A stretch of DNA of 38,987 nucleotides from Candidatus Nanohaloarchaea archaeon (GCA_042217665.1 JBDGSH010000075.1:1-38987), one strand, 5' to 3'. Shown: positions 34-17,840, numbered from the stretch's first letter. Notes: a model not told the origin generated them from the sequence alone. A program made the numbers and translations.

Positions 34-1338
34 ATGAGTTCTGAAATCAGCAAGGAGAAGCTTGAGAAAGAGTTGAAGGGTATAGAGTCAGAGATAGACG
101 ATCTTGAGGAAAGAGTCAAGGAGATCGAAGACAGGGATATGATGGCGGAGCTTGAGTCTCTGTCGCTGAAAGACGAAGTACAGGAAGTTGAGGAAATGCT
201 GAACCATATGGATCAGGAAGAGCTGGAGAAACGGCTCAACATGGTCGAACAGATCAAGGAAGAGTACAAGGAGGGTAAAGTCCACGAAAAACTGGAGTAT
301 CTCTACGAACAGGTGAAGGAGCTTAAACAGCGTGACCTGCCGGAATCAAGCTCCCAGGAATCCAAGGTCGACGAAAAAGTAGAAGAGCTTGAGGACCGGA
401 TTGAAAAGCTTCAGTCAACCGGCGAAATACCTGAAAAATACAAGAAAGCAGTTAGATCGAACTACAATACTTTACAGGACGTTAAAGCCAGGATTGCCAA
501 GCTGGAAACCCTTAAAGAAGAACTAGATGAGCTTAAGCAACAGGAAAGCGACGAAAAAACAGTTGAAAAGGTAAAAACCGTTGAGACGGAGGATTCTGAT
601 CTTTCTCACATAGAGTTTGACTTGAAATCGATCAAGTCAAGACTGGAGAAGATAGAGGATAAAACGCCAGAGGAACGTGTTAAAGAAGTTGAAGAGCTTA
701 GAAAACGAGTTGAAGACCTTGAACGTGGCGATGACAACCAGTTAGAAGCGTTTAAGAATGATGTAGAGCAGAAGATTCGTGAGATAGATCGTAAGTCCGC
801 AGAGAAATCTGAGTTGGAGGATAAAGCAGCCTCGATAAGGAAGGACTTCAGGAGAAACCTTGAAAGCCTGGAGAAGGAGCTGAAAGCTGAAATTAATGCT
901 ATTGAACGGCATGAAGAGTTTGAAGAATCCCTGGAAGCCGTTGAAAGGCGTGTAGAGAATCAGGAAGAGGAGGTTGAAGAGAAGATAGAGAACCTTACAG
1001 ACATTATACTCGACAATCAGAGCTATATTGAGGCGTTAGAAGACGAGATAGACTATCTCCACGAGAAGCTTGCCGAGAGACAGGTTAAAGACGATGAGGA
1101 GAAGTCTGAACGCGTGAAAGAGCTTGAAGAGAAAGTTAAAGATTTACAGAGCGAAGGAACTTCAGAAGATCAAGAAAGTATTGAAGAAGAGGAAGTATCG
1201 AGCGACATTGAACAAAAGATCGATAACCTGGCTGAACACGTTATCAAGAACCAGGAGAAGATTCATGAGCTTCAGCAAAAGATCCAGACCAAGCAGGTTC
1301 CACGTTCGGAAGCTGAAGACGTAACAATTATCAGTTAA
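34..1338 (+). CDS. Acidic coiled-coil protein, function unknown
   Basis: 435-aa ORF (track start TTG 31; ATG at 34). It is E/K/D/L-rich with recurring blocks such as VEELEDRIEKLQSTGE, VKELEEKVKDLQSEGT and VEELRKRVEDLERGDD. No catalytic motif was seen. A TATA-like TTTTAAAT at 2-9 lies ~28 nt upstream of the ATG. Confidence 0.6.
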   Translation: MSSEISKEKLEKELKGIESEIDDLEERVKEIEDRDMMAELESLSLKDEVQEVEEMLNHMDQEELEKRLNMVEQIKEEYKEGKVHEKLEYLYEQVKELKQRDLPESSSQESKVDEKVEELEDRIEKLQSTGEIPEKYKKAVRSNYNTLQDVKARIAKLETLKEELDELKQQESDEKTVEKVKTVETEDSDLSHIEFDLKSIKSRLEKIEDKTPEERVKEVEELRKRVEDLERGDDNQLEAFKNDVEQKIREIDRKSAEKSELEDKAASIRKDFRRNLESLEKELKAEINAIERHEEFEESLEAVERRVENQEEEVEEKIENLTDIILDNQSYIEALEDEIDYLHEKLAERQVKDDEEKSERVKELEEKVKDLQSEGTSEDQESIEEEEVSSDIEQKIDNLAEHVIKNQEKIHELQQKIQTKQVPRSEAEDVTIIS

Positions 1339-2209
1339 ACAGGTAGAATAGTAGCAGGAACCCTGAAGTAAACTCTGTAATTAGAAACGCTATTAAAAAC
1401 ACCGGTACGAATCGAATTCCTTCTCTAATTTCTACTTCATCCTTATCTAGCTCTTTTATTTCCTCTTCTGTAATGCCTTTAATTTTACCTCCCAGTTCTT
1501 CCTCTTTACCCAGTACCTCGCCTCCTTCCAGCTCCTCTACAGCTACTTCCTCCACCATGACTTCTTCCTGGATAACCATCAGAAATCTGTAGACAATGAT
1601 CAATAGTAGAAACATTACAAAGGTTGAAGCTCCGACAACCGGGCTATGTATCATGTTAACCAGTGAAAAAGCCGATACAGCTGAAACCTCTACCAAAACC
1701 CGTTTTCTCTCTTCTTCAATTTTTTTAAGGGTCAGAGAAAACACTTCAGGGCGCCAGGCTGCTTTATAGACCGCAAATACCATCGTGTACAGGAAGCCTG
1801 CGAACACCATATTGAACAGGAACTCCATAGGATAGAGCAGTTGAACGCCTGAAACCGGGAAAGGCGCTCCAAAACCGATCATGGAAAGCAGAAACGCATC
1901 CGCACCACCCCACATGTTTGTAAAGTACATAGACCAGCCTATAATACTGAAGACAACTCCTACAACCAGGCTTAGCAGCAATGGATCTCCCAGAGCTTGA
2001 AAATAGGTTACAGGATTGGTCAATAAGGTTTGGATGCTGAAAAGAGTGTCTATATTGAGCTGCGGGAGAGACGCCATTAGATGAAGAACTATACCGCCTA
2101 CAATCCCTGCTGCTGGGAAGACATCCGGTACCTCAGTAGTCTTCAGGTCAAAGACGGACGCGATGAACAGAATGCTGAAAACCGTGATGTGGGAAAAAAG
2201 CAGATACAT
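1331..2209 (-). CDS. A24-family aspartic signal peptidase (archaeal prepilin/preflagellin peptidase type) with archaeal-type C-terminal extension
   Basis: Polytopic membrane protein. The first Asp box is SVFDLKTTEVPD and the second is NMWGGADAFLL (a GxGD-like motif), spaced as in the FlaK/PibD family. The C-terminal part (EGGEVLGKEE...ITEEEIKELDKDEVEIREGIRFVPVF) plus a final TM resembles the archaeal A24 C-terminal domain. Start is placed at Met29 of the track ORF (ATG 2209): a TATA-like TTTTTATT (complement of 2233-2240) lies ~27 nt upstream, and the longer ORF would run into the divergent gene start at 2292. Confidence 0.7.
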   Translation of the reverse strand: MYLLFSHITVFSILFIASVFDLKTTEVPDVFPAAGIVGGIVLHLMASLPQLNIDTLFSIQTLLTNPVTYFQALGDPLLLSLVVGVVFSIIGWSMYFTNMWGGADAFLLSMIGFGAPFPVSGVQLLYPMEFLFNMVFAGFLYTMVFAVYKAAWRPEVFSLTLKKIEEERKRVLVEVSAVSAFSLVNMIHSPVVGASTFVMFLLLIIVYRFLMVIQEEVMVEEVAVEELEGGEVLGKEEELGGKIKGITEEEIKELDKDEVEIREGIRFVPVFLIAFLITEFTSGFLLLFYLFN

Positions 2210-2232
2210 TAAACCAGAGTTACCGGCTGAAG

Positions 2233-2268
2233 AATAAAAAGCGAACCGAAAAAACCCTGATTTTATAT
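2233..2268. promoter_or_regulatory. Divergent TATA pair (complement of 2233-2240 for the peptidase; 2261-2268 for the PEP-enzyme-like gene)
   Basis: TTTTTATT (minus strand) is centred ~27 nt from ATG 2209. TTTTATAT (plus strand) is centred ~27 nt from ATG 2292. Confidence 0.45.
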
Positions 2269-2291
2269 TCCAGAACACTCTAACCAAATAC

Positions 2292-4379
2292 ATGGGCGGA
2301 TTGAAAACACTCGAAACAGCAAATACCGACCAGGAACTCGAAGAATTCCCTCAACTACAGCTTCTAAACCAACTCGAAAACGAAATACCGGTTTCAGAAA
2401 CACTGATCCTGGGACCAAGCTACTTCAAGCAGCTACTGGACCAAAACCGGCTTAAACCCAAGATAGAAGATCTGAAACGTAATATAAACGAAGAAAAAAC
2501 AGTAGCAATCGAATCAAGACTCAGACAGATACAAGCCCAGATACAGAACGCCAACCTGCCAAAAATACAGGAAATAATAGAAAAACTTGACGAAAACAGC
2601 GGTTTCTACACTTTAACACTTCACTCGCCGATTTCAGACAACAAGAAAAACTTTTCAGAAAGCTCAGCATCAGAAATCGAAGCAAAGATCAAACAAAGCT
2701 TCGCCGGATTCTTCAGCCGAGAAAACGTGTTAAAAGACGAGAAAGGAGAGAAAAACCTGTACCGAAACCTTCCAGCACTCACAATACAGAAAGTACCTGA
2801 AAAACCTGTATCAGGCAGCATAAACAAACTACAGGACAATATAATAGAGCTAGAAGCCGGAAAAGGCTTCAACCATCAGAAAAAGAATAAAATCAAGCTG
2901 GACAGGTATAGATTATTCGAAAAATCCGGACAACTACTGAATAGAAACATTAAGAAACAGAGATACAGGAACGTGTTCAAAGACGGAGAAACTGTACGGG
3001 AAGAAACTGAAGGAGGCGAGAGCACGTTGACAGACAACCAGGCACGAGAACTAGGCAACTACGCATCCAAAATCGGCGAACACATGGAAAGCTTTAGCGC
3101 CAACTGGATATACGATCCGAAAACAAAGAAGTTAAGCATCCAGGAGATAAAACAGGTTGATTTCAGTCAAAAACCCGAACTAGCGCTTCTAAACTCAGAT
3201 AAACCGATACTTGAAGGAAAAGCCCTAGGAAGCGGAGTAACAACAGGCAAAATAACTATTAGAAACAACAAATCACAGAAGAAACAAGTCTCAGAGATTT
3301 TAGTCGCGGACAACGCCTCACAGATCCGGAAAGACGATCTTGAAGATGTTTCCGCGGTTGTATTAAACCAGGAAGAGTCTCTGGAGCGGATGGAACCTTT
3401 ACTGGAGAAAAACGTTAAAATCATACACGGATCTGGCTCAGCGACCTCAAAGCTACATGAAAACCAGAAAGCAACGATCAAAATGATCGATGGAGAAGCT
3501 AAAATCTATAACCGGTGTGAAAAAACGGAGATAGACACCGGCTGGGTCGAGAAGTTTAAACCTTTGATAGATCTTGACAACGGAAAACTGGATACGGACG
3601 CTCTCAGCAGCTTCAACGGCTATCTAGAAAGCGTTAAAATCTCCGAGGAGGAAGCAAAGCAGGAAGCTGCCAGAATTTACCCTGAAAAGCTTTTGCTGGA
3701 GATGGAGGATGAAATCGATATTGAAACAGTGAAAGAATGCCGTGAGAAGGGGCTTGACAACGTTAAACCTGTTGTGCCTTCAACCAGTCTGGACAAGGCA
3801 GAGGAGCTTAAAGGCCTACTGAAACGTGAGGATCTGGCAGAAGAGGTCTACATGGCTGTATCGAAGCCTTCGAACGTTTTCTCTGCCTCAGTTCTCGGAG
3901 AACTTTTCGACGGCTTTATATTCGACCTGGACGGGTTCGCGGACAACCTGGAGGAAGAAAATTATAGCCAGGCCGTTACAACCGGTTTAAAACGATTTGT
4001 GGAGCGTGCCAGAGCCCAGAATAGTTCGGTAGCGGTGAAGATCGGACAGGAAGTACCTAAAACGGTTTTCGACTACCTTTACGAGCTGGAGGTTGAATCG
4101 GTTTCACTCAACGAGTATACTTCTGAGGCGCTCTCCGACTGGCAGCCTTCCGAGGAGCAGAACATGGAGCTTGATCTGGAGTCGATGATCGGCGCACCCG
4201 CCAATAGAGTAGAATCTGTCTTAGAGGATCACGGAGCGCTGACCGCGCAAAAAATGCTGGACCATCTGCCTTCCAAGATTGATGGAGGAAGCCTTCACCA
4301 GGCTCTGGGCTGGCTGGCTAAAGAAGGTAGAATAGAAACAAAAGTTAAGGAAGGAGAGGTTTTCTACACGCTGAACTAG
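2292..4379 (+). CDS. PEP-utilising-enzyme-like protein (PPDK_N/ATP-grasp-like N-terminus, swivel-domain-like middle lacking the phospho-His, C-terminal winged-helix-like domain)
   Basis: aa ~37-288 follow the PEP synthase/PPDK N-terminal pattern (KIKQSFAGFFSRENV; PALTIQKVPEKPVSGS; ELEAGKGFNHQ; ANWIYDPKTKKLSIQEIKQV, compare DIEWA...lQaRP). aa ~305-406 follow the mobile-domain pattern (GKALGSGVTTGKITI...EILVADNAS...VSAVVLNQEES...IKMIDGEAKIY), but the GGxTSHAAI phospho-His motif is replaced by NQEESLERMEP. The last ~60 aa (LTAQKMLDHLPSKIDGGSLHQALGWLAKEGRIETKVKEGEVFYTL) look like a wHTH. TATA TTTTATAT at 2261-2268. Confidence 0.45.
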   Translation: MGGLKTLETANTDQELEEFPQLQLLNQLENEIPVSETLILGPSYFKQLLDQNRLKPKIEDLKRNINEEKTVAIESRLRQIQAQIQNANLPKIQEIIEKLDENSGFYTLTLHSPISDNKKNFSESSASEIEAKIKQSFAGFFSRENVLKDEKGEKNLYRNLPALTIQKVPEKPVSGSINKLQDNIIELEAGKGFNHQKKNKIKLDRYRLFEKSGQLLNRNIKKQRYRNVFKDGETVREETEGGESTLTDNQARELGNYASKIGEHMESFSANWIYDPKTKKLSIQEIKQVDFSQKPELALLNSDKPILEGKALGSGVTTGKITIRNNKSQKKQVSEILVADNASQIRKDDLEDVSAVVLNQEESLERMEPLLEKNVKIIHGSGSATSKLHENQKATIKMIDGEAKIYNRCEKTEIDTGWVEKFKPLIDLDNGKLDTDALSSFNGYLESVKISEEEAKQEAARIYPEKLLLEMEDEIDIETVKECREKGLDNVKPVVPSTSLDKAEELKGLLKREDLAEEVYMAVSKPSNVFSASVLGELFDGFIFDLDGFADNLEEENYSQAVTTGLKRFVERARAQNSSVAVKIGQEVPKTVFDYLYELEVESVSLNEYTSEALSDWQPSEEQNMELDLESMIGAPANRVESVLEDHGALTAQKMLDHLPSKIDGGSLHQALGWLAKEGRIETKVKEGEVFYTLN

Positions 4380-4881: not shown

Positions 4882-5661
4882 ATGAGCGAAGGACGAGTAA
4901 TCGGACTGGTATCCGGCAAAGGCGGCGTAGGAAAGACTAGCCTATCAGTCAACCTAGGAATCGCGCTAAGCGAATTCGGCAACGAAGTAACCATAATAGA
5001 CACAGACTTCTCCGCATCCAACCTGGGAGTACACCTCGGACGGTACGAACACCCTGTAAAAGTACAGGACGTACTAAAAGGCGACTCACACCCGGAGAAA
5101 GCTATATTCAGGCATCCAGCAGGGATAAAAGCCGCCGTATCCTCCAACGAGATCTCAGAGGTAGAACCGGATACAACAAACATCAGAAGAATGATGGAAG
5201 AAGCCAAGAAACGCTCAGACTACGTAATAGTCGACTCGCCGCCCGGACTCAACAGCAACGTCGAATCCATTATGCAGGCATGCGACGAACTGCTCATCAT
5301 CACGATGCCGACACAGACAGCGTCAATCAACGCCGCACAGATAATTGAACGGGCGAAACAGTTCCAGCAACCGGTTCTAGGCACCGTAGTCAACAAGGTA
5401 GAGGACGATCCCTCCAAAGAGCTGATAGAGCGGGAGATCGAGATGATGACAGAGTCACACATCATGGCGAAGATTCCTCACGACAACATAATGAAGGAGA
5501 GCCTGTTCGAAAACACGCCGCTGCTGCATTACGAACCGTTCGCAGAAGCCTCACTTCAGATAAAAGAGCTGGCGGCGGATCTGGACGGCAGACAGTTCGA
5601 AAGACCTAAACTGGCGCCTGTAAAACGGATAGTAAACGATTTGAAGAGAAAAATTGACTAA
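4882..5661 (+). CDS. MinD/ParA-family P-loop ATPase (archaeal MinD-like)
   Basis: Deviant Walker A with signature lysine (GLVSGKGGVGKTSLSVNLG), IIDTD (Walker A'), Walker B-like DYVIVDSPPG, and VVNKV. The basic amphipathic C-terminus (VKRIVNDLKRKI) is a possible membrane-targeting helix. Confidence 0.85.
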   Translation: MSEGRVIGLVSGKGGVGKTSLSVNLGIALSEFGNEVTIIDTDFSASNLGVHLGRYEHPVKVQDVLKGDSHPEKAIFRHPAGIKAAVSSNEISEVEPDTTNIRRMMEEAKKRSDYVIVDSPPGLNSNVESIMQACDELLIITMPTQTASINAAQIIERAKQFQQPVLGTVVNKVEDDPSKELIEREIEMMTESHIMAKIPHDNIMKESLFENTPLLHYEPFAEASLQIKELAADLDGRQFERPKLAPVKRIVNDLKRKID

Positions 5662-5673
5662 AATTGCTTTCAG

Positions 5674-5684
5674 ATAATTTTTTA
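5674..5684 (+). terminator. Oligo-T run (T6 at 5678-5683) in the 20-nt gap between convergent genes
   Basis: The sequence aattttttag follows the MinD-like stop (5659-5661) directly. Archaeal termination commonly uses oligo-T tracts. The run overlaps the stop codon of the convergent minus-strand gene. Confidence 0.3.
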
Positions 5685-8342
5685 GTGTGAGTTCTGTTTG
5701 TGGATTCTTAATGCTGCGGAGGAGTCGAAGCTTTCGCCGCATTCCCCGCAGACATTTTCTTCGCCGCTGCCCTGCTGTTTCTCTTCTTCACTGACTGTAT
5801 TCGTTGACGAGCTCTCTGAATCAAGAGCCGGACCTGAATTTTTTGGCTCTACATCGATTACTCCTGAAGAAGTTCTGCCTCTTGAACCGCCTCTTCCGCC
5901 GCTTCTGTAGCTGTCTCTGCCTCTTCCTCCTCTGCCGTCTCCTTTCTTCTTTTTGATGGCTGTCGCCAGTACAAGTATAAACACGGTCAGGATTCCGATC
6001 ACCAGGTTGAAGTCGCTCTGTTCCTTGATGAAGTCGCCGGATGGAAGGCTGTCCGCCAGCGAGCCTCCCGAGTCCTGTTTTTTGGAGCTGGATTTCTTTT
6101 GTGCGGGTTTATCTTTCATTATCTGGGCCTGAAGCGAGACCAGGTCGTTTACTTTTCCTCCTGCCTGACCTGTGACCTCCAGCTTCACTGTCTTGTACTT
6201 GTTACAGCTGTTGCTGCAGTAGTCGGAGGGGAGCTCAACGTTTAACACTGATTTCTTGGCTTCTCCAGGCTTTAGTTTATCCCAGCTCTGTCTGGTGAAG
6301 TTGTACCAGTTGTTGTTGAAGCCGTTAACCGATAGCTTGACGTCTTTGATCGTTGCCTGACCTGAGTTGAGTACTGTTAGCTCGGATCTGGAGACGTCTC
6401 CTACGTAGAACTGTGTGGTGTCCGGTGCTTGAAGTGTTAGTTCTTTGGATGTGTAGGTCTGGAACGTTGTCTTAAGTTTTTTCTCGTATCGGGAGTACGG
6501 TTTTTTCTCCGCGATTACCTTGAAACTGTATACTCCTGTTTTTTGGGGAGCGGTTATCGAGCCTGAGAACAGTCCGTTGCCGTTGGTGACGAAGTCTTTT
6601 GATTTTACCGGTTTGTTTTTGCTGTTCAGGATTTTCACTGTTACCTTGGCGTTGGCGACTTCCTGTTCTGACGGTGTCGTGATTTTTCCCTGTATGTTCA
6701 GGTTTCCTCCTTTCTCCACCCTGTCGCTTGAGAGTTCGAAGCTGTTAAGCGTGAGAGGGGTCATCTTGACAACCATATAACCGTTCATCAGGATGGGGGA
6801 GCCTGTGGCGTTGTATTTTGAGACAGGGAAAGTGACTCTTCCCACTGTAGGATGTATATCTGAGTTCTGGAGCTCTACCTGTTTCCATTTGCTGCCCGAG
6901 TAACAGCTGACGCCGTTAATGTTCCAGCCCACGCATTCGTAGACCTCCAGCCGGGAAGGGTTAACTTTGCTTGTGTCGTATTCCAGCGACATTCTTCCTT
7001 CTTCAAACGGGTAGCCGAACCAGACAGCTACAGCGTTCGCAACAGTTACTCCTTCCATGGATTTTGATACTTCTCCTATAGGTATTTCATCGTAGCGGAT
7101 GTTTCCGACCGCCACACCGTTTTGAACCGTGTTCTTGGATTCTTTGAGCGTCACTCCTTTCAGTGAGAGCCTGGCTTCCGGAAAGCTGATGCTGAAGTTG
7201 TATGAACCGGGTAATAGATTGGCGGAGTACTTTCCTCCTTTCACGTCTACTCTGCGTGAGAATCCTTCTTTGTCGAACGTTATCTGGCCGTCCACCGATT
7301 TCCCTGCTGCGTCAGTTATCGCTCCTTCGAAAAGTATGTATTTTGAGACCTGGAACTCCGTTATGTTGACACCGCCGTTCTTGTTCAGGCCTATGATGAA
7401 CTTGTAACGTCCTAGCGGCAGCTCCGGTATCTTGTTCAGCTTTAGGCCGTAAGTTCCTGGTCCCAGATACGTTGAGCCTACGACCTTGTTGTTCATGTAT
7501 TTCTCTATAACAGTGTTGTTCTCCGTCTCCATGTCCTTTATCTTGAGGTAGAAGTCTTCAGGCAGCAGATCATTCTGTTTTTCTCCTTTTCTGGTGATCA
7601 ATGCCTCTACGTAGAGTTTTTTTAGGTTCTGGTAGGCTATCTCTCCGTTCTCCGGTGTCTTGTTTACTATTTTGCGCTGCCAGGTCGGTTTGATATCCAG
7701 CATCAGCGGTGTCTCCGTGTTGACCGTGAAACCTCCTGGCTTGTACTTAATACCGGTGAAGATCGATTTCTGGCCTGAAACACCTTCTTCCGGTATGGTT
7801 GCGTCTACTCTCAAGAGTTTTTTGTCGTTTGTCGGACTGCTTTGAAGTTTTTCTCCTGTCCTGAACTCTGTTTTTAGCTCTACTTCGCCTGGCGAGAGAT
7901 CTACGGTTTCTCCGTTTATCAGTGCTTTTAGATAGAAGGTTACGTCGCTTCCTTTGTATGCTTTGACCTCTGCCGGCGTGTCTACTCTTTTGAGCTGGAA
8001 GTGGTTGACCTTGAAGCTTTCGTTTTCCTGGTTTCCGCAGCTTAGTCTGGCCTTGTAATCGCCTGTGTTTTCTTTCAGAAGGTCTGTGCCGATTTCGTAG
8101 CTGAAGCTATCTCCTGAAACTGTTTTTCCTCCTTTAAGTGGTTCTCCGTTATGTATTAGACTGATGGTTGGGTCTGTGCTGTTGCAGTTGAAGTTTCCCG
8201 TTATGGCTACTTCGTCGCCCACATCTTTGTGGATCCAGATCGTGTGTTTGTCCAGGCTTAGGGAGGCTGCGGCTGCTGTGGCAGCGAAGAGTGCCGTGAT
8301 TGTTAGAAGTGTGAAGAATCTTTGGAGGGTTTTGGAAGCCAT
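5682..8342 (-). CDS. Type-I membrane surface protein: signal peptide, multi-beta-sandwich ectodomain, TM, cytoplasmic RGG-rich tail with C-terminal C2H2 zinc finger
   Basis: Signal peptide MASKTLQRFFTLLTITALFAATAAAAS. One segment is carboxypeptidase-regulatory-like (GAITDAAGKSVDGQITFDKEGFSRRVDVKGGKYSANLLPGSYNFSI). A membrane-proximal segment is CARDB/NEW3-like (ELTVLNSGQATIKDVKLSV...LKPGEAKKSVLNVELP). TM FNLVIGILTVFILVLATAI is followed by KKKKGDGRGGRGR...CGECGESFDSSAALRIHKQNSH. The ATG overlaps the upstream stop by 1 nt (TAATG on the minus strand at 8340-8344). Confidence 0.8.
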   Translation of the reverse strand: MASKTLQRFFTLLTITALFAATAAAASLSLDKHTIWIHKDVGDEVAITGNFNCNSTDPTISLIHNGEPLKGGKTVSGDSFSYEIGTDLLKENTGDYKARLSCGNQENESFKVNHFQLKRVDTPAEVKAYKGSDVTFYLKALINGETVDLSPGEVELKTEFRTGEKLQSSPTNDKKLLRVDATIPEEGVSGQKSIFTGIKYKPGGFTVNTETPLMLDIKPTWQRKIVNKTPENGEIAYQNLKKLYVEALITRKGEKQNDLLPEDFYLKIKDMETENNTVIEKYMNNKVVGSTYLGPGTYGLKLNKIPELPLGRYKFIIGLNKNGGVNITEFQVSKYILFEGAITDAAGKSVDGQITFDKEGFSRRVDVKGGKYSANLLPGSYNFSISFPEARLSLKGVTLKESKNTVQNGVAVGNIRYDEIPIGEVSKSMEGVTVANAVAVWFGYPFEEGRMSLEYDTSKVNPSRLEVYECVGWNINGVSCYSGSKWKQVELQNSDIHPTVGRVTFPVSKYNATGSPILMNGYMVVKMTPLTLNSFELSSDRVEKGGNLNIQGKITTPSEQEVANAKVTVKILNSKNKPVKSKDFVTNGNGLFSGSITAPQKTGVYSFKVIAEKKPYSRYEKKLKTTFQTYTSKELTLQAPDTTQFYVGDVSRSELTVLNSGQATIKDVKLSVNGFNNNWYNFTRQSWDKLKPGEAKKSVLNVELPSDYCSNSCNKYKTVKLEVTGQAGGKVNDLVSLQAQIMKDKPAQKKSSSKKQDSGGSLADSLPSGDFIKEQSDFNLVIGILTVFILVLATAIKKKKGDGRGGRGRDSYRSGGRGGSRGRTSSGVIDVEPKNSGPALDSESSSTNTVSEEEKQQGSGEENVCGECGESFDSSAALRIHKQNSH
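5685..5750 (-). other. Classical C2H2 zinc-finger motif (last 22 aa of the 886-aa protein)
   Basis: I translated the reverse complement of 5685-5750 directly: CGECGESFDSSAALRIHKQNSH. This matches C-x2-C-x3-F-x5-L-x2-H-x4-H, the canonical C2H2 consensus including the conserved F and L. Confidence 0.75.
5874..5942 (-). other. RGG/RG-rich low-complexity segment in the cytoplasmic tail
   Basis: GDGRGGRGRDSYRSGGRGGSRGR lies immediately after the TM helix and the KKKK stop-transfer signal. Confidence 0.7.
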
Positions 8343-9163
8343 TATTTATGTATGGGGAGTTCCTTCTCTTTAAAGGTTTCAACTATTCGATCCTTAAACC
8401 CCATAATTTTCAGCAGAAGCAAACCGTTCAACAGTAACGACGCCAGCAACAGGATCTTCCACTTGTTCCTGAATGCTTTCTGGAGGATGCCGGGTTCGTA
8501 ATTTAGGCTGATAGAGGTTTTTCCCACCACAGTCCTGTTCTCGTCGAGTATATAGTATTCTAGCGTTCTCTTCTCGTTGAATAATGTCGGCTCGTATTCC
8601 AGTTCCGCTTCACCGTTCCTGATTCTGACCGTTGAGACCTTCCATTTAGCGGGTTTATCCTTCGGCACCATTAAGCCTTTTTCCACGCCTGTCTTGATCC
8701 TTGAGCTTTCCTTTTCAACCTTCAGTAGCTGCGTCTCTACGTTTTTCTGTGTGGAAATGTTTTTCCTTGCTTTAAACGTAAAGTTTGACAGCCTGGTTGT
8801 CTCTCCGCAGTAAGCCAGGCTTAACCGTGTTGAAACATTACCAGTGTAGTTGTATGGTACGTATTGAAGATCCAAAACAGCGGTTTCTCCCGGCCAGAGA
8901 GCTTTGGGTGCTGACCACTGCGTATCAGTAGTATTCTTGTAGTTAAAATCCGCTTTAAGCCTGTAATTGCAGCCAATCGAACCAGTGTTTTCCACAATCG
9001 CTGTAATATTCTGAATTGTTCCTACGTTCTCTGTATAATTGTATTTAACGGTGTTCTGACCGGTCAGTCCTGTGATATCTACTTCAAACTGTATAGCTGT
9101 CGCTGTTCCCAGTAAGAATAAGAAAGAAAGGGTTAAAACGGTTAAGCGGTTAGGTCTAGCCAT
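8342..9163 (-). CDS. Secreted beta-sandwich protein with C-terminal TM anchor
   Basis: Signal peptide MARPNRLTVLTLSFLFLLGTATA. CARDB-like strand pattern (ITAIVENTGSIGCNYRLKADF...LWPGETAVLDLQY). C-terminal TM WKILLLASLLLNGLLLLKIMGF with a short basic tail. Several N-X-S/T sequons. It overlaps the upstream gene by 22 nt. Confidence 0.7.
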   Translation of the reverse strand: MARPNRLTVLTLSFLFLLGTATAIQFEVDITGLTGQNTVKYNYTENVGTIQNITAIVENTGSIGCNYRLKADFNYKNTTDTQWSAPKALWPGETAVLDLQYVPYNYTGNVSTRLSLAYCGETTRLSNFTFKARKNISTQKNVETQLLKVEKESSRIKTGVEKGLMVPKDKPAKWKVSTVRIRNGEAELEYEPTLFNEKRTLEYYILDENRTVVGKTSISLNYEPGILQKAFRNKWKILLLASLLLNGLLLLKIMGFKDRIVETFKEKELPIHK

Positions 9164-9597
9164 ACCTGTCCTATTGCGTTGGTAGGTGTCCGGATTTTCA
9201 TCTTGACCTTTCCTTCGTAAGTTCCTGCTTCTGTGGCGTTGAATCCGATCTCAAGTTCCTGTGAGCCTTTGACTCTGAGTTTTTCGTCAAACTCCAGGGC
9301 TTCTGAAATGTTTCCTGTTGATCTAAGCGTGACTACTGACTCTTTTGTCGAGTTTACCTGCAGGAACTTTATTGATTCAGACTTGACCGGTATTCTACCG
9401 AACTTGAGTTGAGAGTTGGTTACTATGCCGATGTCCTTGGTCCGATTGTCTGTTGTGTCGATTGCTGTTCCTTGAGCGTTGAAAACCCGTGTCTGCGTGT
9501 TGACGGTTAGTGCCGAGATCAGAAGCGGTATGGCTACGAGAACAATCACAGCCCCTACTACGGCGGCTGCAGCTTTGTTCTTTTCTATTTTTTCCAA
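9142..9597 (-). CDS. Small N-terminally anchored beta-sandwich protein (possible class-III/pilin-like signal)
   Basis: TTG start. The N-terminus is MEKIEKNKAAAAVVGAVIVLVAIPLLISAL: a charged head followed directly by a ~22-aa hydrophobic helix with no obvious AxA cleavage site. The rest is beta-rich (ELEIGFNATEAGTYEGKVKMKI). Confidence 0.55.
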   Translation of the reverse strand: MEKIEKNKAAAAVVGAVIVLVAIPLLISALTVNTQTRVFNAQGTAIDTTDNRTKDIGIVTNSQLKFGRIPVKSESIKFLQVNSTKESVVTLRSTGNISEALEFDEKLRVKGSQELEIGFNATEAGTYEGKVKMKIRTPTNAIGQVWLDLTA

Positions 9598-9618: not shown

Positions 9619-10704
9619 CTATATCCACCTATAAAATATGTAGCCAACTACCAGTATTAAAAGTATCCCTGAAAGCAGGTCTGGAAGCTCTGTCAACAGT
9701 ATCAGCGATACCGCTGTCAGGAACCCGACCACTCCCAGGATTGTCACCGGGTTGATCTCGAAGTAGTACATTACCGACGCCAGCAGAAGCAGCGCTACAA
9801 CGATGACCCAGTACGGAACCTGGCCCTCCTCTTCGGGCGATGTCTGCGTGATCTGGATCTCCTCCGGTATCTTTATCGAACTGTCAATATACGCCTGACC
9901 GGTTATGTAGTCCATGTTTCCTTCGACACGGTACTTCCCTGTCTCTATGTTCTGTTCGGTCCAGAAAGTCTTCACGATCCTTGTCTCGTCGGGCGCCAGG
10001 TATCCTCCGCCTACCAGAACTTCGCCTGTCTTGTTACCCATCTGGTTGTAAATAGTGGTTTCAGCGGCCTGTATACCGGTTGTAACAGTACCATTATTCT
10101 TCATTAAGAAATCGATACGGGCTTTACCGGGTCCTGCGCGTTTACCGTTCACACCCAGAATTTTAAGGTCTCTCTCGGCTTTTCCAGGTACTTTGAAGAC
10201 AAAAACGAACTGTGTCAGGCCTACAGTCTGTACAGAGGTCGTCCCTGTTCCTCCGCCGCCGAAGTCCGGGTTCAGGTTGATCGCGCCGGCGTGGTAGCCT
10301 GGCTCAGCGTTTTGAGGGACTGAAACGGTGAACTCGACGGTTTTACTTGAACGGGCAGTTCCGCCTCCCGCCAGGTTGATAGTTCTTGTATTGTCAGGAT
10401 CTACCTGGTAGGTTTCCTGGCTGAAAGAGATCCAGTCGCTTATATCTTCCTCAGAAGCCTTGGAAGGAACGTAGTCGTACCGCTTTCTAGGACCTCCCTT
10501 CAGTATATTGTTATTGGGGCGTTCATATGTCGGCCTTATCAGGAACGGACTGTTACGGTCTGTAAGTATGTAGAATTTGGCTTCGTACGATTTACCTCTC
10601 TCCAGCGTCCCTAAATCCATTACTCCGGGAGCTGTTCCTACATATCCTGTTGAAAGGGTTGTCGCTGCCAGTACTGCCAGTGTTAGGAATAGAATTTTCT
10701 TCAT
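9619..10704 (-). CDS. Secreted two-domain beta-sandwich protein with C-terminal multi-TM anchor (first gene of the operon)
   Basis: Signal peptide MKKILFLTLAVLAATTLST. Two Ig-like segments (GVMDLGTLERGKSYEAKFYI...; KILGVNGKRAGPGKARIDFLMKNNGTVT...). About three C-terminal TM helices. Shine-Dalgarno AAGGAG (complement of 10713-10718) lies 8 nt upstream of the ATG. Confidence 0.7.
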   Translation of the reverse strand: MKKILFLTLAVLAATTLSTGYVGTAPGVMDLGTLERGKSYEAKFYILTDRNSPFLIRPTYERPNNNILKGGPRKRYDYVPSKASEEDISDWISFSQETYQVDPDNTRTINLAGGGTARSSKTVEFTVSVPQNAEPGYHAGAINLNPDFGGGGTGTTSVQTVGLTQFVFVFKVPGKAERDLKILGVNGKRAGPGKARIDFLMKNNGTVTTGIQAAETTIYNQMGNKTGEVLVGGGYLAPDETRIVKTFWTEQNIETGKYRVEGNMDYITGQAYIDSSIKIPEEIQITQTSPEEEGQVPYWVIVVALLLLASVMYYFEINPVTILGVVGFLTAVSLILLTELPDLLSGILLILVVGYIFYRWI

Positions 10705-13064: not shown

Positions 13065-13087
13065 GAACCGTTTCGTATATGTTCTGT

Positions 13088-14095
13088 ATGAAGGATTTCT
13101 CCCAGCTTTCACGTGAGGAACTGGATGAGCAAACGGATTTCTACGGTGAGAAGCTTCAGAAGCTGGGTGAGGAGATTCAGAAAACTATTATCGGTCAGGA
13201 GGAAGCGGTTGACTCTGTTTTAACGTGTCTGGTGGCTGACGGTAACGCGTTGCTTGAAGGAGTTCCGGGTCTCGGGAAAAGCTTGTTGGTTGAGACTTTA
13301 GGTAGGATCGTTGAGGACTCCGGCTTCAACCGTATACAGTTCACGCCTGATCTTTTGCCTGCGGATATTGTAGGTATTGAGGCGTACGATGAGGATAAAG
13401 GGTTTTATACTGAGAAAGGTCCGATCTTTTCCAACTTTATCCTGGCGGACGAGATTAACAGGGCGCCGCCGAAAGTTCAATCCGCGATGCTTGAAGCTAT
13501 GCAGGAGAACAAGGTGACTATCGGCGACGAGGACTATCAGCTGCCGAAGCCGTTCTTTGTGTTGGCGACCCAGAACCCTGTGGAGCAGGAGGGTACGTAC
13601 CCGCTTCCGGAGGCTCAGGTTGACAGGTTTCTATTCAAGATCGTGATGGATTATCCGAAGCGGAAGAACGAGTTTGAGATTATTGATGTGAACGCTGAGC
13701 GGATGGATATGAATGAGTACGGCCTCAACCAGGTTATAACCAGTGAGGAGCTTATCGAGGCTCAGGAACTGTCGAAAGAGATTATTGTCAGCGACGAGAT
13801 CAAGAAGTATATCCTTGACCTCGTTGAGGCTACCAGAAACCCTGAGGAGTTCGACCTGGAGTATGGAGACTTGATTGATTACGGTGGTTCTCCGAGAGCT
13901 TCTATTAACCTGGCGCTGGCGGCTCGAGCCAATGCTTTGATCAACAAACGGTTTTTTGTGAAGCCTGACGATGTAAGAGAAGTCGTGCATGAAGTCTTCC
14001 GCCACAGAATCATCCTTAACTACGAGGGCCAGGCCCGTGATATTTCAAAAGAGGAGATTATCGACGATATCGTTGATCGTGTGCCGGTGAGATAA
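13088..14095 (+). CDS. moxR: MoxR-family AAA+ ATPase
   Basis: Walker A LLEGVPGLGKSLL, Walker B FILADEINRAPPKVQSAMLEAMQE, and VLATQNPVEQEGTYPLPEAQVDRF (sensor 1 / Arg finger region). The C-terminal lid has GGSPRASINL. The track start is ATG 13079; 13088 fits the TATA spacing better. Confidence 0.9.
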   Translation: MKDFSQLSREELDEQTDFYGEKLQKLGEEIQKTIIGQEEAVDSVLTCLVADGNALLEGVPGLGKSLLVETLGRIVEDSGFNRIQFTPDLLPADIVGIEAYDEDKGFYTEKGPIFSNFILADEINRAPPKVQSAMLEAMQENKVTIGDEDYQLPKPFFVLATQNPVEQEGTYPLPEAQVDRFLFKIVMDYPKRKNEFEIIDVNAERMDMNEYGLNQVITSEELIEAQELSKEIIVSDEIKKYILDLVEATRNPEEFDLEYGDLIDYGGSPRASINLALAARANALINKRFFVKPDDVREVVHEVFRHRIILNYEGQARDISKEEIIDDIVDRVPVR

Positions 14096-14976
14096 TGCCT
14101 GACAAACCTTTCGACCTTAATCTTAAAGAAGAAGTTGATTCAGAGGTCAAGGAGATCAACGAGGTCTTCAGGTTTGTTTTGAAGTACCTGGAGGAGTTTC
14201 AGCCTTCAGGAGTGGAGTTCTCGGAGCTCAGAAAGTACAGAAGCGGGGACGACGCCTCACGCATCGACTGGAAGTCTTCCAACCGGTTGAACGATATCTA
14301 TGTTAAGGAGTTCGACGAGATCAGGGATCTGGATGTGTTTATTGTACTGGATGCTTCCAGCACTATGACGTTCGGCACCTCAGATAAACTGAAGAGCGAG
14401 TATGCGGCGGTTCTGGCGGCGGCGATGAGTTATGCTTCCGCTGACAACGGTTTGAAGGTTGGCATCGGGATTTTTGGCGGTGAGGAAACGTTTATCACGC
14501 CTTCCTCGGGTTTGAAGCAGTACAGGAAGATTTTGAACGAGGTCAGCGATCCCGGGAACTATGGAGGAAGCTTTGATCTTAAGTCCGCGATTGATAAAAC
14601 TGTTAACAACATCAAGTCGAAGAGCTATCTCTTCGTCCTTTCTGACTTTATTGAGACCGGCGAGGGCTGGTCTGACAGGGTTAAGATGGCTTCCAGCAAG
14701 TTTGAAAACGTTCTCTGTATCATGGTCCGCGACCTGAGGGATTACAAGCTTCCTGACGCTGGCAACGTCCGGCTTGGGTCGCCTAACTCCTCCGGTCAAC
14801 AGGTGGTAAACACTTCCAGAATAAGAGAAGATTTTGAGGAAAGGGTTGAGAAACAGGAGGAGAAGGTTAGGAAAAAGGTTATCGGGGCGGGAGCCGACTT
14901 TCTGAAGATTGATACCAGGGAGTCGCCTGGAGCCGCATTACTTAGTTTCTTCGATGAGAGAGGTGCGTTGCAGTGA
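14095..14976 (+). CDS. DUF58-family protein (MoxR partner, VWA-like fold)
   Basis: DUF58 signature ELRKYRSGDDASRIDWKSSNRLNDIYVKEFDE, followed by FIVLDASSTM. The ATG overlaps the moxR stop (TAATG at 14093-14097). Confidence 0.85.
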   Translation: MPDKPFDLNLKEEVDSEVKEINEVFRFVLKYLEEFQPSGVEFSELRKYRSGDDASRIDWKSSNRLNDIYVKEFDEIRDLDVFIVLDASSTMTFGTSDKLKSEYAAVLAAAMSYASADNGLKVGIGIFGGEETFITPSSGLKQYRKILNEVSDPGNYGGSFDLKSAIDKTVNNIKSKSYLFVLSDFIETGEGWSDRVKMASSKFENVLCIMVRDLRDYKLPDAGNVRLGSPNSSGQQVVNTSRIREDFEERVEKQEEKVRKKVIGAGADFLKIDTRESPGAALLSFFDERGALQ

Positions 14977-15914
14977 AGATTGTGTTTACGGATCAGTACG
15001 CCAATCTGTTCCTGATTCTGAACGGTTTAGTTGTGATCTTTTATTTTGCGGCTGTTCAGCAGAAGAAGCAGCGCGCTTTGAAGTTTGGCAACTATGAGAC
15101 GCTTCAGAAAGTGGTCGGCGGCTCGTTTATCAAGTCCTCCAACTTTGTGCTTTTGTTGCGGTTACTAGGCATTTCGCTGCTTTTGATCGGTATTTCGAAC
15201 CCTGTGATTGTCAGGGAGGCGCCTTCCACTGATTCGGATTATGTTGTGGCGTTGGACTCTTCTTCTTCGATGCTTTCCAGTGATTTCCAGCCTAACCGGT
15301 TTTCTGCCGCCAAGGATTTGACTAAAAGTTTTATTGAGAAGCTTCCGCCGAAAACTTCCGTGGGAATTGTTTCTTTCGCCGGTTCTGCCAGTGTTGAACG
15401 TAAGCTTCTGCCTAAAAACTCTTCAGTTGATAGGGTTGTGGAGAATATTTCCATCGGTGATGAAGCAGGTACAGCTATTGGCGACGCTATTTTTACCGGT
15501 TCTTCACTGCTTTCATCCTCCAATCAAAGCCGTAAACTTCTTCTGATTACCGATGGCCGAAATAACGTGGGTCGTTCAATTCAAAAAGCGCTAGGGTTCG
15601 CTGTAACAAACAACGTTACCATTAATGCGATCGGTATCGGTGCTTCTAACCGTTCCATTGATACTAACAGATTTTTAAATGGTACTTACAGAGGATTCCC
15701 TAATCTGGATACTGAAGAGCTTAAGAATATAAGTGAAGCGACAGAAGGTAGTTTTAAAGCAGTTTCTTCCCGCAGCGAGCTGGACGTTGCGTTAGACGAG
15801 TTTTCTACCTCGACTGTTCGAAACGATATTTCGGACGAGTTTGTCCTTTTGGCGGCTCTGCTGCTGCTTATCGAGTGGGTTCTGGCATCTTCAAAGTTCA
15901 GTGTAATTCCTTAA
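14973..15914 (+). CDS. Membrane-anchored von Willebrand factor A (VWA) protein, BatA-like
   Basis: N-terminal TM (LFLILNGLVVIFYFAAV) plus a second TM. MIDAS motif YVVALDSSSSM, then VGIVSFAGSA, GTAIGDAI and LLLITDGRNNVG. C-terminal TM (FVLLAALLLLIEWVLA). The GTG start overlaps the upstream stop (GTGA at 14973-14976). Confidence 0.85.
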   Translation: MKIVFTDQYANLFLILNGLVVIFYFAAVQQKKQRALKFGNYETLQKVVGGSFIKSSNFVLLLRLLGISLLLIGISNPVIVREAPSTDSDYVVALDSSSSMLSSDFQPNRFSAAKDLTKSFIEKLPPKTSVGIVSFAGSASVERKLLPKNSSVDRVVENISIGDEAGTAIGDAIFTGSSLLSSSNQSRKLLLITDGRNNVGRSIQKALGFAVTNNVTINAIGIGASNRSIDTNRFLNGTYRGFPNLDTEELKNISEATEGSFKAVSSRSELDVALDEFSTSTVRNDISDEFVLLAALLLLIEWVLASSKFSVIP

Positions 15915-15952: not shown

Positions 15953-17314
15953 ATGTCTGAAGAAATCAGTGAAGAAAAAGTCGTAGAGCTTGTCTCAGGA
16001 GATGTAGAAGGGTTCAAAAATTTTGTAGAGGAACGTGATCTTTCAGAGGAGCAGCTTGAAAGACTTCTGAAAGACGAGAAAAAATCAAAGAACCGTTCAA
16101 CCGCTAAAAAACTTTTAAAACAAGAGAAAAAAAGTTTAGAGCTTGGAAAAAGACTTGAAAATTCAAAGGACGAGATTGACGACATCAAGAAAACTTTAAG
16201 ACGCATCAAAAAAGATTTCCAGCTCTCTCTTGACCAGGATTCAGAGGAAGAAATCGACCAGATGCAGGTGATCGAGCTAATCGAGGGCGATGCAGAAGAG
16301 TTCATAAGTTTTCTTAAAAAACATCATCTTTCTACAGAGCAGCTGGAAAACCTTTTAGAGTCGGAGAAACGGGCGAAGAACAGAAAAACTGTTAAAAACC
16401 ATCTTAGAAGCTTGAAGAAAAGAAAAAAGCTGGTTGACGACATTCAAAACGCTCTAGATCATCTGGAAGCTACAGGTTCCAGCATCGATGACATAAAAGA
16501 GGATTCTAACTTTATAGTTCCTGAAAACGAAGAGAACGAACCCTTAAACGAGGAAACCGGTGAAAAAACTGAAGAAAAGTCCGAGGAAGAAGAGACAGAT
16601 TCTAGCGAGGAACTACCTGAGCAACCGGGAGACAGTGAAAAAGACAGAGAGCGTTCTCAGGAAAATATAGAAAAACAACCCTCTAGAGACTCCAGAGATG
16701 TAGAAAAGGTTGAAGCCGACGAGAGACAGGAGATACTTGATTTTCTGGCGAAACACGGGGTTGACATCTCCGAGCTCCAGAATTCCTCTTTAGAAGATCT
16801 GAAAAAGCTGAAAAAGGAATTTGAAGACGACGAACAAAAGAAATCACGGCAGGAGATTGAGGAAGAAGCTGAAGAAGACCTAGAAGTTATAACCGGAGCG
16901 GTAAGAGATAAGAAGGAAGACGAAGAATCGGGAGCCGGTCAGAAAATTGAAGAATTCAAGGAGAGACTCCACGAACTGGTTGAAACCCCTGAAAGCCTCA
17001 AATCCAGTAAAAAATTCGACAAGCAGCAAACCCTGAAGATACTGGAGAACTACAGATCCCTAGACAACAGAGAAAAAGCTGTTAAGACTGCTCACCTGAT
17101 GAAAGGCTTCCTAGAATACCAATTCGGGATTCAAAGAGAGCTTACCTATTCTGAACTAGCTGAAGAGATTGAAGGAACAGAAAACGAAGATTTAAAGAAG
17201 CTTGAAAGTTTTTTCCAGGTAATGAGCCAGCACCAGTACCTTGAAAACGTAAAAGTCGAAAACGTTGACGACGTGATCGATCTATCGGAGAGAGTAGTTC
17301 GAGAGCTAGGCTGA
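15953..17314 (+). CDS. Acidic protein with internal ~48-aa duplication; the C-terminus is possibly DUF4129-like
   Basis: Repeat 1 (aa 9-56) is KVVELVSGDVEGFKNFVEERDLSEEQLERLLKDEKKSKNRSTAKKLLK. Repeat 2 (aa 105-152) is QVIELIEGDAEEFISFLKKHHLSTEQLENLLESEKRAKNRKTVKNHLR. A long E/D/K-rich linker follows. The C-terminal segment RELTYSELAEEIEGTENEDLKKLESFFQVMSQHQYLEN resembles the DUF4129-type ending often found beside MoxR/DUF58; this match is weak and from memory. Confidence 0.55.
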   Translation: MSEEISEEKVVELVSGDVEGFKNFVEERDLSEEQLERLLKDEKKSKNRSTAKKLLKQEKKSLELGKRLENSKDEIDDIKKTLRRIKKDFQLSLDQDSEEEIDQMQVIELIEGDAEEFISFLKKHHLSTEQLENLLESEKRAKNRKTVKNHLRSLKKRKKLVDDIQNALDHLEATGSSIDDIKEDSNFIVPENEENEPLNEETGEKTEEKSEEEETDSSEELPEQPGDSEKDRERSQENIEKQPSRDSRDVEKVEADERQEILDFLAKHGVDISELQNSSLEDLKKLKKEFEDDEQKKSRQEIEEEAEEDLEVITGAVRDKKEDEESGAGQKIEEFKERLHELVETPESLKSSKKFDKQQTLKILENYRSLDNREKAVKTAHLMKGFLEYQFGIQRELTYSELAEEIEGTENEDLKKLESFFQVMSQHQYLENVKVENVDDVIDLSERVVRELG

Positions 17315-17324
17315 GGCCGAAAAA

Positions 17325-17840
17325 ATGTTGCCTGAAAAACACCTAGACGATCTGGAACAGTCCGTCAAGAAGAAAAAACTCTATTCCCTAGCCGGCCACA
17401 CATTACTGTTCGCAGCCTCCTACCTTTTCATAGCGCCTCTAATCCACGAAACCGTACATATAATCGTCTTGGCAGTCTCAAACTGTTTTTACGAAACCAA
17501 CTGGAGCTTCAACATTATAAACGGTTTAAGAGCAACCGTCCAACCTCACTGCTCATTAAACAAGCTTAACCAGCTGATCTTCTACCTCTCAGGATACCTG
17601 ACAACCCTCGGATCAGCCGTAGCTATCCTAGCCGGCTCCAAGAAACTTGAGAGATATGGAAAACCCGGTTTCGCTGTTGCCTCCGGGTTGCTTCTATCGC
17701 TTGTCGGCAATATATCGCTTAGAGGCGATTTGAAAAACCTGAGGCTTCTACTGGATGCGCCGGTGTTCTTCACCTGGTTAATCTACCTAGGGATACTGGC
17801 AGCATGCTTTCTGCTTATATTCGAGCTTTACGAAGCCTAG
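17325..17840 (+). CDS. Small polytopic membrane protein with HExxH motif (putative membrane zincin, DUF3267-like)
   Basis: HETVH (17445-17459) sits at the end of the first TM (FIAPLIHETVHIIVLAV). There are 3-4 predicted TM helices. SD-like GAGG lies 9 nt upstream of the ATG. Confidence 0.5.
   Translation: MLPEKHLDDLEQSVKKKKLYSLAGHTLLFAASYLFIAPLIHETVHIIVLAVSNCFYETNWSFNIINGLRATVQPHCSLNKLNQLIFYLSGYLTTLGSAVAILAGSKKLERYGKPGFAVASGLLLSLVGNISLRGDLKNLRLLLDAPVFFTWLIYLGILAACFLLIFELYEA

Follow-up and report, generated by a model that had tools for sequence, protein, structure and literature searches.

C2H2 zinc fingers are usually treated as eukaryotic readers of nucleic acids, and in DNA-binding fingers of the Zif268 type the helix positions -1, +2, +3 and +6 are those that contact the bases. 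On the archaeal side, the viral C2H2 protein AFV1p06 binds DNA and tolerates the substitution of a ligand His by Glu (PMC3541406), and small zinc-finger micro-proteins of haloarchaea carry a finger of the eukaryotic type, the CxxCG knuckle being typical of haloarchaeal zinc proteins (PMC6562870; PMC11241148). A haloarchaeal precedent for a zinc module that serves as a protein adaptor at the membrane is CdpC of Haloferax volcanii, the membrane anchor of FtsZ1, which consists of an anchor, a linker that is disordered and, at the C-terminus, a zinc module that binds the cytoskeletal protein (10.64898/2026.07.16.738847), and the archaeal ATPases MinD4 and MinD2 are known to position envelope machinery (10.1101/2020.04.03.021790; PMC11588486). 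Here we describe a stretch of 38,987 nucleotides from Candidatus Nanohaloarchaea archaeon (GCA_042217665.1 JBDGSH010000075.1:1-38987; this whole stretch is called the window), in which one gene, termed the target gene below, encodes an archaeal envelope protein with a C2H2 finger fixed to its predicted cytoplasmic end and conserved over ~60 sequence clusters.

AFV1p06 and the haloarchaeal micro-proteins are small and soluble, whereas the target finger ends an envelope protein of ~886 aa and is tethered by a transmembrane (TM) helix and a disordered linker; CdpC differs in being peripheral (held by an amphipathic helix), in its C3H and C4 zinc ribbons and in having no ectodomain, and it bears no sequence relationship to the target. 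In the literature, which was not exhaustively covered, we found no description of a membrane-tethered archaeal C2H2 finger or of the DPANN gene module in which the target gene lies; the fold is known, and its placement, likely use and surrounding gene module are undescribed. Our preferred explanation, to which we give a probability of roughly 0.5, is that the finger acts as a protein-docking module on a flexible leash and not as a nucleic-acid reader, and that its likeliest partner is the MinD/ParA-type ATPase encoded beside it. The argument for a protein-recognition module is that the exposed acidic and small residues are invariant, that the surface outlives the zinc site, that the position is strictly C-terminal, and that relatives possess an equivalent tail element. 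The target gene and its parts, partly delimited with an AlphaFold2 (AF2) model and its predicted local distance difference test (pLDDT) scores, are the following.

5682..8342 (-): whole target gene, of 886 aa and a stop codon; it encodes a type-I envelope protein and closes the four-gene operon.
8268..8342 (-): signal peptide, residues 1-25, MASKTLQRFFTLLTITALFAATAAA, read from the sequence, with a hydrophobic window at 9-30 and an AF2 helix at 7-20.
6093..8267 (-): ectodomain, residues 26-750, a chain of beta-sandwich domains (MG / CarboxypepD_reg / NEW3-like).
6030..6047 (-): pre-TM motif LPSGDF, residues 766-771, from alignments.
5955..6011 (-): TM helix, residues 778-796, FNLVIGILTVFILVLATAI, from hydrophobicity, AF2 and alignment.
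5874..5954 (-): KKKK stop-transfer and basic RG/RGG-rich juxtamembrane segment, residues 797-823, from the sequence.
5751..5873 (-): disordered Ser/acid-rich linker, residues 824-864, from AF2 pLDDT <50 and the comparison of homologues.
5685..5750 (-): terminal classical C2H2 zinc finger, residues 865-886, CGECGESFDSSAALRIHKQNSH, whose last ligand is the last residue.

An earlier note on this DNA had singled out the span 5685..5954, which corresponds to residues 797-886 from KKKK to the final His, as the tail of a surface protein, and the architecture that it gave (signal peptide, beta-sandwich ectodomain, single TM helix, KKKK, finger at the end) is borne out by both the sequence and the AF2 model. 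Read directly from the DNA, the protein terminates in NVCGECGESFDSSAALRIHKQNSH followed by TAA (5682..5684), the codons of the finger being tgc ggg gaa tgc ggc gaa agc ttc gac tcc tcc gca gca tta aga atc cac aaa cag aac tca cac. The finger, C865-x2-C868-x12-H881-x4-H886, matches C-x2-C-x3-F-x5-L-x2-H-x4-H exactly, as had been claimed, and a six-frame scan of the 39-kb window found no other C2H2-type match.

A first homology search gave eight relatives at 39-48% identity, two of them labelled Candidatus Nanohaloarchaea. Without exception, 9/9 close homologues keep C865, C868, G869, E870, F872, D873, A877, H881 and H886, whereas the linker preceding the finger varies among them in both length and sequence. 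A profile search of 1.84 billion cluster representatives returned 397 clusters at E<=1e-3, of which 162 reach E<=1e-30, and the best 150, together with the first homologue set, formed our census of tails. The exact C-x2-C-x12-H-x4-H spacing occurs in 62/62 finger-bearing cluster representatives, so that the prediction of a tail and ligands conserved in orthologues holds, and the last His is the final residue in 46 of the 62, most others running on for 1-3 residues and one for 11. Conservation extends to positions that are not ligands, counted among the same 62: G5 in 61, E6 in 60, F8 (the aromatic at C2+4) in 61, D9 in 55, T/S10 in 59, E11 in 47, S12 in 44, G/A13 in 61, L/I/M16 (helix +6) in 61 and A20 in 44. 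Mean pairwise identity reaches 56% in both the finger and the TM helix, as against 27% in the ectodomain and 29% in the linker, by which measure the finger is, with the TM helix, one of the two most constrained regions of the protein. With ligands and spacing conserved far beyond chance, and non-ligand positions well beyond the needs of the fold, these alignments show that the finger is not a chance match; it is real and under strong selection.

As for the fold, AF2 predicts strands at 863-864 and 871-872 and a helix at 875-885, hence a beta-beta-alpha arrangement, and a search of PDB sequences with the family profile gave weak matches on the finger region to eukaryotic C2H2 fingers only (SALL4, ZNF484). 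The likeness to the classical family PF00096 (TFIIIA/Zif268-type) therefore consists of the [FYV]-x-C-x2-C-x3-F-x8-H-x4-H spacing, the predicted beta-hairpin plus helix and the SALL4/ZNF profile matches; the target differs in being a single acidic finger that closes a membrane protein, with invariant surface residues and without a TGEKP linker or tandem array. When a finger-only profile (X-padded, 42 aa) was run against a set of 5.8 billion proteins, 86 candidates emerged and three small proteins were returned, and the same finger flavour recurs in the unrelated small halophile proteins P0168 and P0169. As it is found both in these proteins and in a neighbouring scaffold protein described below, the flavour is a lineage-typical module and not a one-off. 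A scan of GTDB species genomes with two peptide patterns, which were too strict to give a phyletic distribution, hit one genome only, that of locus L001.

The 15 residues after the TM helix hold on average 6.0 Lys plus Arg, the 15 before it 0.6-0.7, and the positive-inside rule places the tail in the cytoplasm in 131/131 relatives; by this rule the target tail is predicted to be cytoplasmic, as the earlier note had assumed. The tail then passes from a basic segment into an acidic linker whose net charge ranges from -6 to -22 among homologues. The TM helix follows the family consensus N-x-ALGLI-x-VF-x-LVLA-x-AVKKKK, and its 56% pairwise conservation is unusual for a simple anchor, which suggests contacts with other helices inside the membrane, perhaps those of the first or third operon gene product.

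Three classes of tail can be told apart in the family. Class A consists of acidic, halophile-type proteins bearing an intact finger. Class B, with 16 representatives, has tails that end [FY]VCEETGExFDTKxALx[LM][HY][KR]x[IM]N[GD][IL]x, where Cys4 is replaced by Thr in 15/16, His22 by Gly or Asp in 16/16 and His17 by Tyr or Phe in 6/16, and where G5, E6, F8, D9, T10, L14 and the hydrophobic core are kept. The class-B gene P0027 occupies the same syntenic position as class A genes, so that class B represents orthologues with a lost or remodelled metal site. On a class-B-only alignment AF2 still draws a beta-beta-alpha fold, with a pLDDT of just 48-64, and residual metal binding may persist, since AFV1p06, whose tolerance this subclade echoes, shows ligand replacement in an archaeal C2H2 finger. 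It thus appears from these alignments that the conserved thing is the surface of the finger and not the metal. The finger carries the signature of a protein-recognition surface and comes with a natural zinc-less derivative; it offers a compact system in which to study how a zinc finger may become a zinc-independent fold.

Class C comprises more distant relatives of ~800 aa with a non-acidic composition and without a finger, which from their gene content are probably DPANN-like. Their tails are basic and 25-97 aa long; a motif of helical appearance, [STN]-x-phi-x-x-[IVL]-[KR]-x-x-phi, of which SSLNKIKSEI and NLLLDIKREI are instances, is found in 28/60 of them versus 0.9 expected from shuffles, with looser versions in nearly all. 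This motif implies that a conserved cytoplasmic contact is a family-wide property; as read from the tails, a conserved cytoplasmic element is the trait of the whole family and the finger is its nanohaloarchaeal form. That the finger helix (S-G-L-K-L-H-K-Q-A-L) and the tail helix of class C (S-S-L-N-K-I-K-S-E-I) are homologous was considered and is unproven, the MAFFT alignment being inconsistent. A further linear motif, R-[VI]-Q-[KR]-P-[DNQ]-[VI]-[SAG], is often present ~25-40 aa past the TM helix in class-A and class-B tails (P0037, P0050, P0081), as in GRVQKPDVSP and MRKSKPDVS, and is weak or absent in the target (SGVIDVEPK).

The genes that surround the target gene in the window are as follows, g1 to g3 being the first three genes of the operon.

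9619..10704 (-): operon gene 1 (g1), 361 aa, with signal peptide, beta-rich domain and C-terminal TM helices; 35% identity to g1 of locus L006.
9142..9597 (-): operon gene 2 (g2), 151 aa, with N-terminal TM helix and Ig-like domain; weak Cep192_D4 and choice-of-anchor D matches.
8342..9163 (-): operon gene 3 (g3), 273 aa, with signal peptide, beta-rich domain and C-terminal TM helix; homologous to g3 of loci L005 and L006.
4882..5661 (+): MinD/ParA-type ATPase, 259 aa, with deviant Walker A SGKGGVGKT and C-terminal amphipathic helix PVKRIVNDLKRKID.

Between 10704 and 5682 the four genes either overlap or are spaced by 21 nt, a tight packing that fits an operon with the target gene last and agrees with the four-gene surface operon proposed before. 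The MinD-like ATPase gene, which the proposal did not include, is convergent with the target gene, the two stop codons lying 20 nt apart. The nanohaloarchaeal loci (window, L001, L002, L007/L008, L009/L010) all show g1 (~360 aa), g2 (~150 aa), g3 (~265 aa), the target and a convergent MinD/ParA ATPase, with the same 20 nt between the stop codons of the last two. In the class C loci L005, L006, L011 and L012 the ATPase gene lies within the operon, between g3 and the target and overlapping the start of the latter, and in L006 and L011 a second copy comes after the target. The MinD-like ATPase is adjacent in 9/11 independent contexts and inside the operon in 4/4 non-halophilic loci. Across loci the ATPases are orthologous at 33-36% identity and share the Walker A SGKGGVGKT and the MinD-like C-terminal amphipathic helix, and g1 to g3 are homologous across the locus groups as well (g1 at 35% identity; g3 at E 2e-18, in a small database). 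The MinD/ParA ATPase is a conserved member of a five-gene module that is shared by nanohaloarchaea and by non-halophilic archaea, probably DPANN-like, and has giant adhesin-like genes next to it. Since the envelope proteins would reach the cytoplasm with nothing but their tails and TM regions, and since the ATPase is the only cytoplasmic protein of the module, it is the likeliest partner of the finger.

In the mechanism that we propose, a Sec signal peptide would send ~720 aa of beta-sandwich domains outside the nanohaloarchaeal cell, where the conserved TM helix would anchor them, and the cytoplasmic tail would present, after a basic Gly/Ser/Arg-rich segment and a variable, acidic, disordered linker, a zinc-binding beta-beta-alpha finger. 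Through this finger the five-gene envelope module, that is, three small membrane-anchored beta-sandwich proteins, the target and the MinD-like ATPase, would be connected to a cytoplasmic partner, and the surface complex would be positioned or organised by the membrane-binding MinD/ParA-type ATPase, in the way that other envelope machines of archaea are by ATPases of the MinD family. The likeness to known ParA/MinD cargo systems (archaeal MinD4/MinD2; bacterial MinD-MinE and FlhG-FliM/FliY) lies in a deviant-Walker-A ATPase with an amphipathic helix that is encoded with cargo genes, and in the class C cargo protein, which shows a short conserved cytoplasmic element including an invariant basic residue; the difference is that the known adaptors are short peptides or helices and not zinc fingers, and that the interaction here is suggested by gene linkage only. 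One may go further and see the finger as a new kind of MinD/ParA cargo adaptor, with the basic tail helix of class C in the same role and the five-gene module thereby positioned or activated at a defined surface site, maybe as part of the host-attachment apparatus of an episymbiont; a eukaryote-type finger would then have been recruited by nanohaloarchaea to recognise a protein at the membrane and, in one subclade, have later become zinc-independent. We offer this extended picture as speculation and think it rather doubtful as a whole. Nanohaloarchaea live attached to hosts, and the organisation of the contact site is a question on which this module gives a testable handle.

Among the alternatives, the one held by the earlier note was that the RGG-rich segment and the C2H2 finger bind DNA or RNA, so that the protein tethers nucleic acid to the envelope or acts as a membrane-bound one-component regulator. 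The C2H2 fold does classically bind DNA and RNA, and GAGA factor and Ros/MucR are examples of a lone finger with basic flanks that can do so with DNA. The target has, beside the membrane in GDGRGGRGRDSYRSGGRGGSRGR (residues 801-823), two RGG and nine RG/GR dipeptides, and the only characterised archaeal C2H2 example, AFV1p06, binds DNA (PMC3541406). However, when RGG was counted in the 45 residues after the TM helix of the 78 relatives with a finger or degenerate finger, at least one was found in 20/78 and at least two in just 3/78, with a median net charge of only +1 and 28% Gly plus Ser. By these counts the RGG box is a peculiarity of the target protein, which speaks against its proposed role as a functional element, and the conserved juxtamembrane property is a flexible, weakly basic, Gly/Ser/Arg-rich segment. 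The basic segment moreover lies directly against the membrane, and the strongly acidic linker stands between it and the finger. The finger itself is acidic: its net charge is -1 in the target and, in close homologues, from -3 to -6. Apart from the ligands, the residues that it conserves are either acidic or small (E6, D9, T10, E11, S12, G/A13), and helix positions -1, +2, +3 and +6 are T/S, S/A, G/A and L/I/M, conserved and not diversified as base-contacting positions. With such residues where bases would be contacted, nucleic-acid binding by the finger seems unlikely, and the zinc-less orthologues of class B that retain the finger motif, as well as the non-halophilic relatives without any finger, count against it too. 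The basic base-reading surface by which a membrane one-component regulator of the ToxR/CadC kind, or a factor released by regulated intramembrane proteolysis, would be recognised is not seen in the target finger, and since neither an effector nor a DNA-binding surface is present, one-component signalling is unsupported. We therefore regard a nucleic-acid partner as improbable, and from the idea of a coupling between envelope and cytoplasm we keep the part with a protein partner, which fits the evidence. The finger may also have no specific partner at all and serve as a structural cap stabilised by zinc, as a module for self-association by which the tails cluster, or as a cytoplasmic zinc sensor or store. 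C2H2 fingers can homodimerise, as do the C-terminal fingers of the Ikaros family, and the occurrence of the flavour in P0168 and P0169 would suit a partner-less role; however, the solvent-exposed GExFDTES is conserved over lineages that are <50% identical, which points to a specific interface, and the loss of zinc ligands in class B while the surface stays argues against zinc sensing, so that we find this alternative very improbable.

Closer to our own explanation is the alternative that the finger docks on another protein of the neighbourhood, for which two further features of the window are needed.

13079..15914 (+): MoxR (AAA_3) - DUF58 - VWA(BatA-like) module, similar to a Bat-type operon.
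15953..17314 (+): acidic coiled-coil cytoplasmic protein that ends the MoxR-DUF58-VWA module, an alternative candidate partner.

Docking on the acidic coiled-coil scaffold, or on the VWA/MIDAS (metal ion-dependent adhesion site) proteins of this module, would connect the envelope protein with a remodelling system of the AAA+ type. In every nanohaloarchaeal locus the MoxR-DUF58-VWA-coiled-coil module is found no more than about 5-10 kb away, and the coiled-coil orthologues of L001 (549..2420, -) and L002 (614..2371, -) begin with two tandem C2H2 fingers of the CxxCGxxFDSERGLxIHxSQVH type, CEICGKAFDSERGLHIHESQVH and CKDCGKEFDSERGLNIHRSQVH, which have the flavour of the target finger and, through the shared CxxCGxxFD[ST]E...H pattern, hint at a common finger-based interaction network. 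Against such docking, these N-terminal fingers are absent from the coiled-coil protein in the window and L007, and the class C loci L005, L006, L011 and L012 have MinD in the operon and no MoxR module in the flanks seen; on balance it is a serious alternative, though one that we hold to be unlikely. A last alternative is that the family consensus P-x-TG-x-F, placed ~7-15 aa ahead of the TM helix (G769 is kept in >90% of 85 sequences), forms with this helix a cleaved C-terminal sorting signal analogous to PGF-CTERM or LPXTG, by which the ectodomain is released or re-anchored; the leftover peptide of TM helix, tail and finger would then serve as a handle for biogenesis or quality control or as a released signal, and the mature protein would not couple outside to inside. 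The motif before the TM helix is conserved family-wide, the Ser/Lys-rich stalk resembles the stalks of S-layer glycoproteins, and other secreted proteins end in TG-x-F, a TM helix and then just 4-8 aa, as with a shared sorting signal. All known signals of this type, however, form the very end of the protein, with no more than a short basic tail, whereas the motif, TM helix and KKKK of the target are followed by 80-170 further residues, the conserved finger among them; the strong conservation of TM helix and finger argues for a lasting function, and an archaeosortase or sortase gene was not seen in the 39-kb window or in the loci, which are contig fragments. The pre-TM motif may still be a sorting or anchor signal, and cleavage that leaves the tail behind appears improbable to us.

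Several observations weigh against a finger that docks on the MinD-like ATPase. The loci L004 and L013, which are divergent and finger-bearing, have no MinD nearby, and in L004 the family member with an intact terminal finger directly follows MoxR, DUF58 and a 957-aa CheW-domain protein that is homologous to the coiled-coil protein of the window (E 4e-22 and 2e-18 in the N- and C-terminal conserved regions); the coiled-coil protein, ~8 kb off in the window, is an equally legitimate candidate partner. The adjacency of MinD may instead mean positioning through another subunit, such as the g3 tail or the g1 loops. The isolated tail is matched by the Pfam zf-C2H2 model (PF00096) at E=6.5e-4 and 20.5 bits, a good match that stays under the gathering score of 25.2, as does the 16.9 bits of the full-length protein. 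The canonical Leu at helix +4 is present in the target and in 24/62 representatives (R in 19, V in 10, K in 6). Acidic surfaces are moreover the norm in salt-in halophiles, and charge alone therefore cannot exclude nucleic-acid binding.

Synteny of the MoxR-DUF58-VWA module extends to L001, L002 and L007, and ahead of it lie two secreted proteins of ~350 aa without family assignment. The region shares with Bat operons the nearby MoxR, DUF58 and BatA-like VWA genes, the NEW3/TRAP-beta-like domains, signal peptide and C-terminal TM helix of the target, and the position of the L004 family member directly after MoxR-DUF58. A BatD domain (PF13584) was not matched in the target at E<0.1, and to our knowledge a finger tail and MinD linkage are not described features of Bat operons.

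Ends of the TG-x-F type were also noted elsewhere. A 286-aa secreted protein of the window (20354..21214, -) ends NNITGDFTALPGPQTLVMLLIFLASVIYLWRVI (NNITGDF...WRVI), that is, in TG-x-F, a TM helix and only 4 residues, and a 208-aa protein of L005 (4251..4877, +) ends likewise with TG-x-F, a TM helix and a short tail; a faint NCBIfam match of the PEP-CTERM type (E 0.087) was obtained for this C-terminal signal. The TG-x-F end looks like a lineage-specific C-terminal sorting or anchor signal common to several surface proteins.

Turning to the ectodomain, the AF2 model of the target, built from an 85-sequence alignment with a mean pLDDT of 85.6, is all-beta at ~26-745 with an ectodomain pLDDT >90, followed by a disordered stalk at 751-779, the TM helix at 778-795, a disordered tail at 797-859 (pLDDT <50) and the C-terminal beta-hairpin plus helix at 860-886 (pLDDT 86-93). 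All 8 N-x-S/T sequons fall within the ectodomain, which also holds the Cys pairs 470/480 (invariant in the 85-sequence alignment) and 709/713 (invariant in 9 close homologues). Foldseek against the PDB matched this model to multi-domain MG/Ig arrays only (alpha2-macroglobulin, complement C3/C5, titin; template modelling score ~0.1) and gave no lead to a function, so the ectodomain can be taken as a generic chain of beta-sandwich domains, in agreement with sub-threshold Pfam matches to CarboxypepD_reg, MG2, NPCBM_assoc and TRAP_beta. A search of PDB sequences with the family profile gave no match to the ectodomain, no Pfam or NCBIfam family was found for the target, and an NCBIfam scan of the operon proteins gave none at threshold. 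Paralogy with the other large NEW3 surface protein of the window (17837..20353) was considered and set aside, as BLASTP gave no significant match. P0067, a protein of 3078 aa from a metagenome-assembled genome of Candidatus Nanosalina sp. (MFB6241385.1), is a giant DUF2341/NEW3 protein in which the C-terminal ~350 residues of the family recur, complete with TM helix, tail and an intact finger at the end, CSVCGEEFDTESGRDLHEEAIH; this whole part, from the membrane-proximal domains through TM helix and tail to the finger, can thus join a different and far larger ectodomain.

The remaining features near the module concern mainly the cell surface. Two overlapping giant open reading frames of 2861 and 2413 aa (21222..29807 and 29794..37035, both -) carry Laminin_G_3, CBM_3, PKD and Big_13/Big_7 domains in a region of extreme strand composition, with an AT skew of about -0.45 and a GC skew of about +0.2; giant reading frames follow the module also in L006 (2313 aa) and L005 (>3342 aa), and they probably encode adhesin-like surface proteins of episymbiotic archaea. 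At 2292..4379 (+) lies a 695-aa protein with PPDK_N and DUF2582 (winged helix-turn-helix) domains and no other domains detected, the corresponding protein of L001 and L007 being 840 aa long with PEP-utilizers and PEP-utilizers_C domains, so that the shorter form in the window may reflect domain loss or divergence. A type IV prepilin-like peptidase (Peptidase_A24, 320 aa; 1331..2293, -) is encoded close to the surface operon, and in L005 genes of the T2SSF family (FlaJ/TadC-like) are found upstream of the module.

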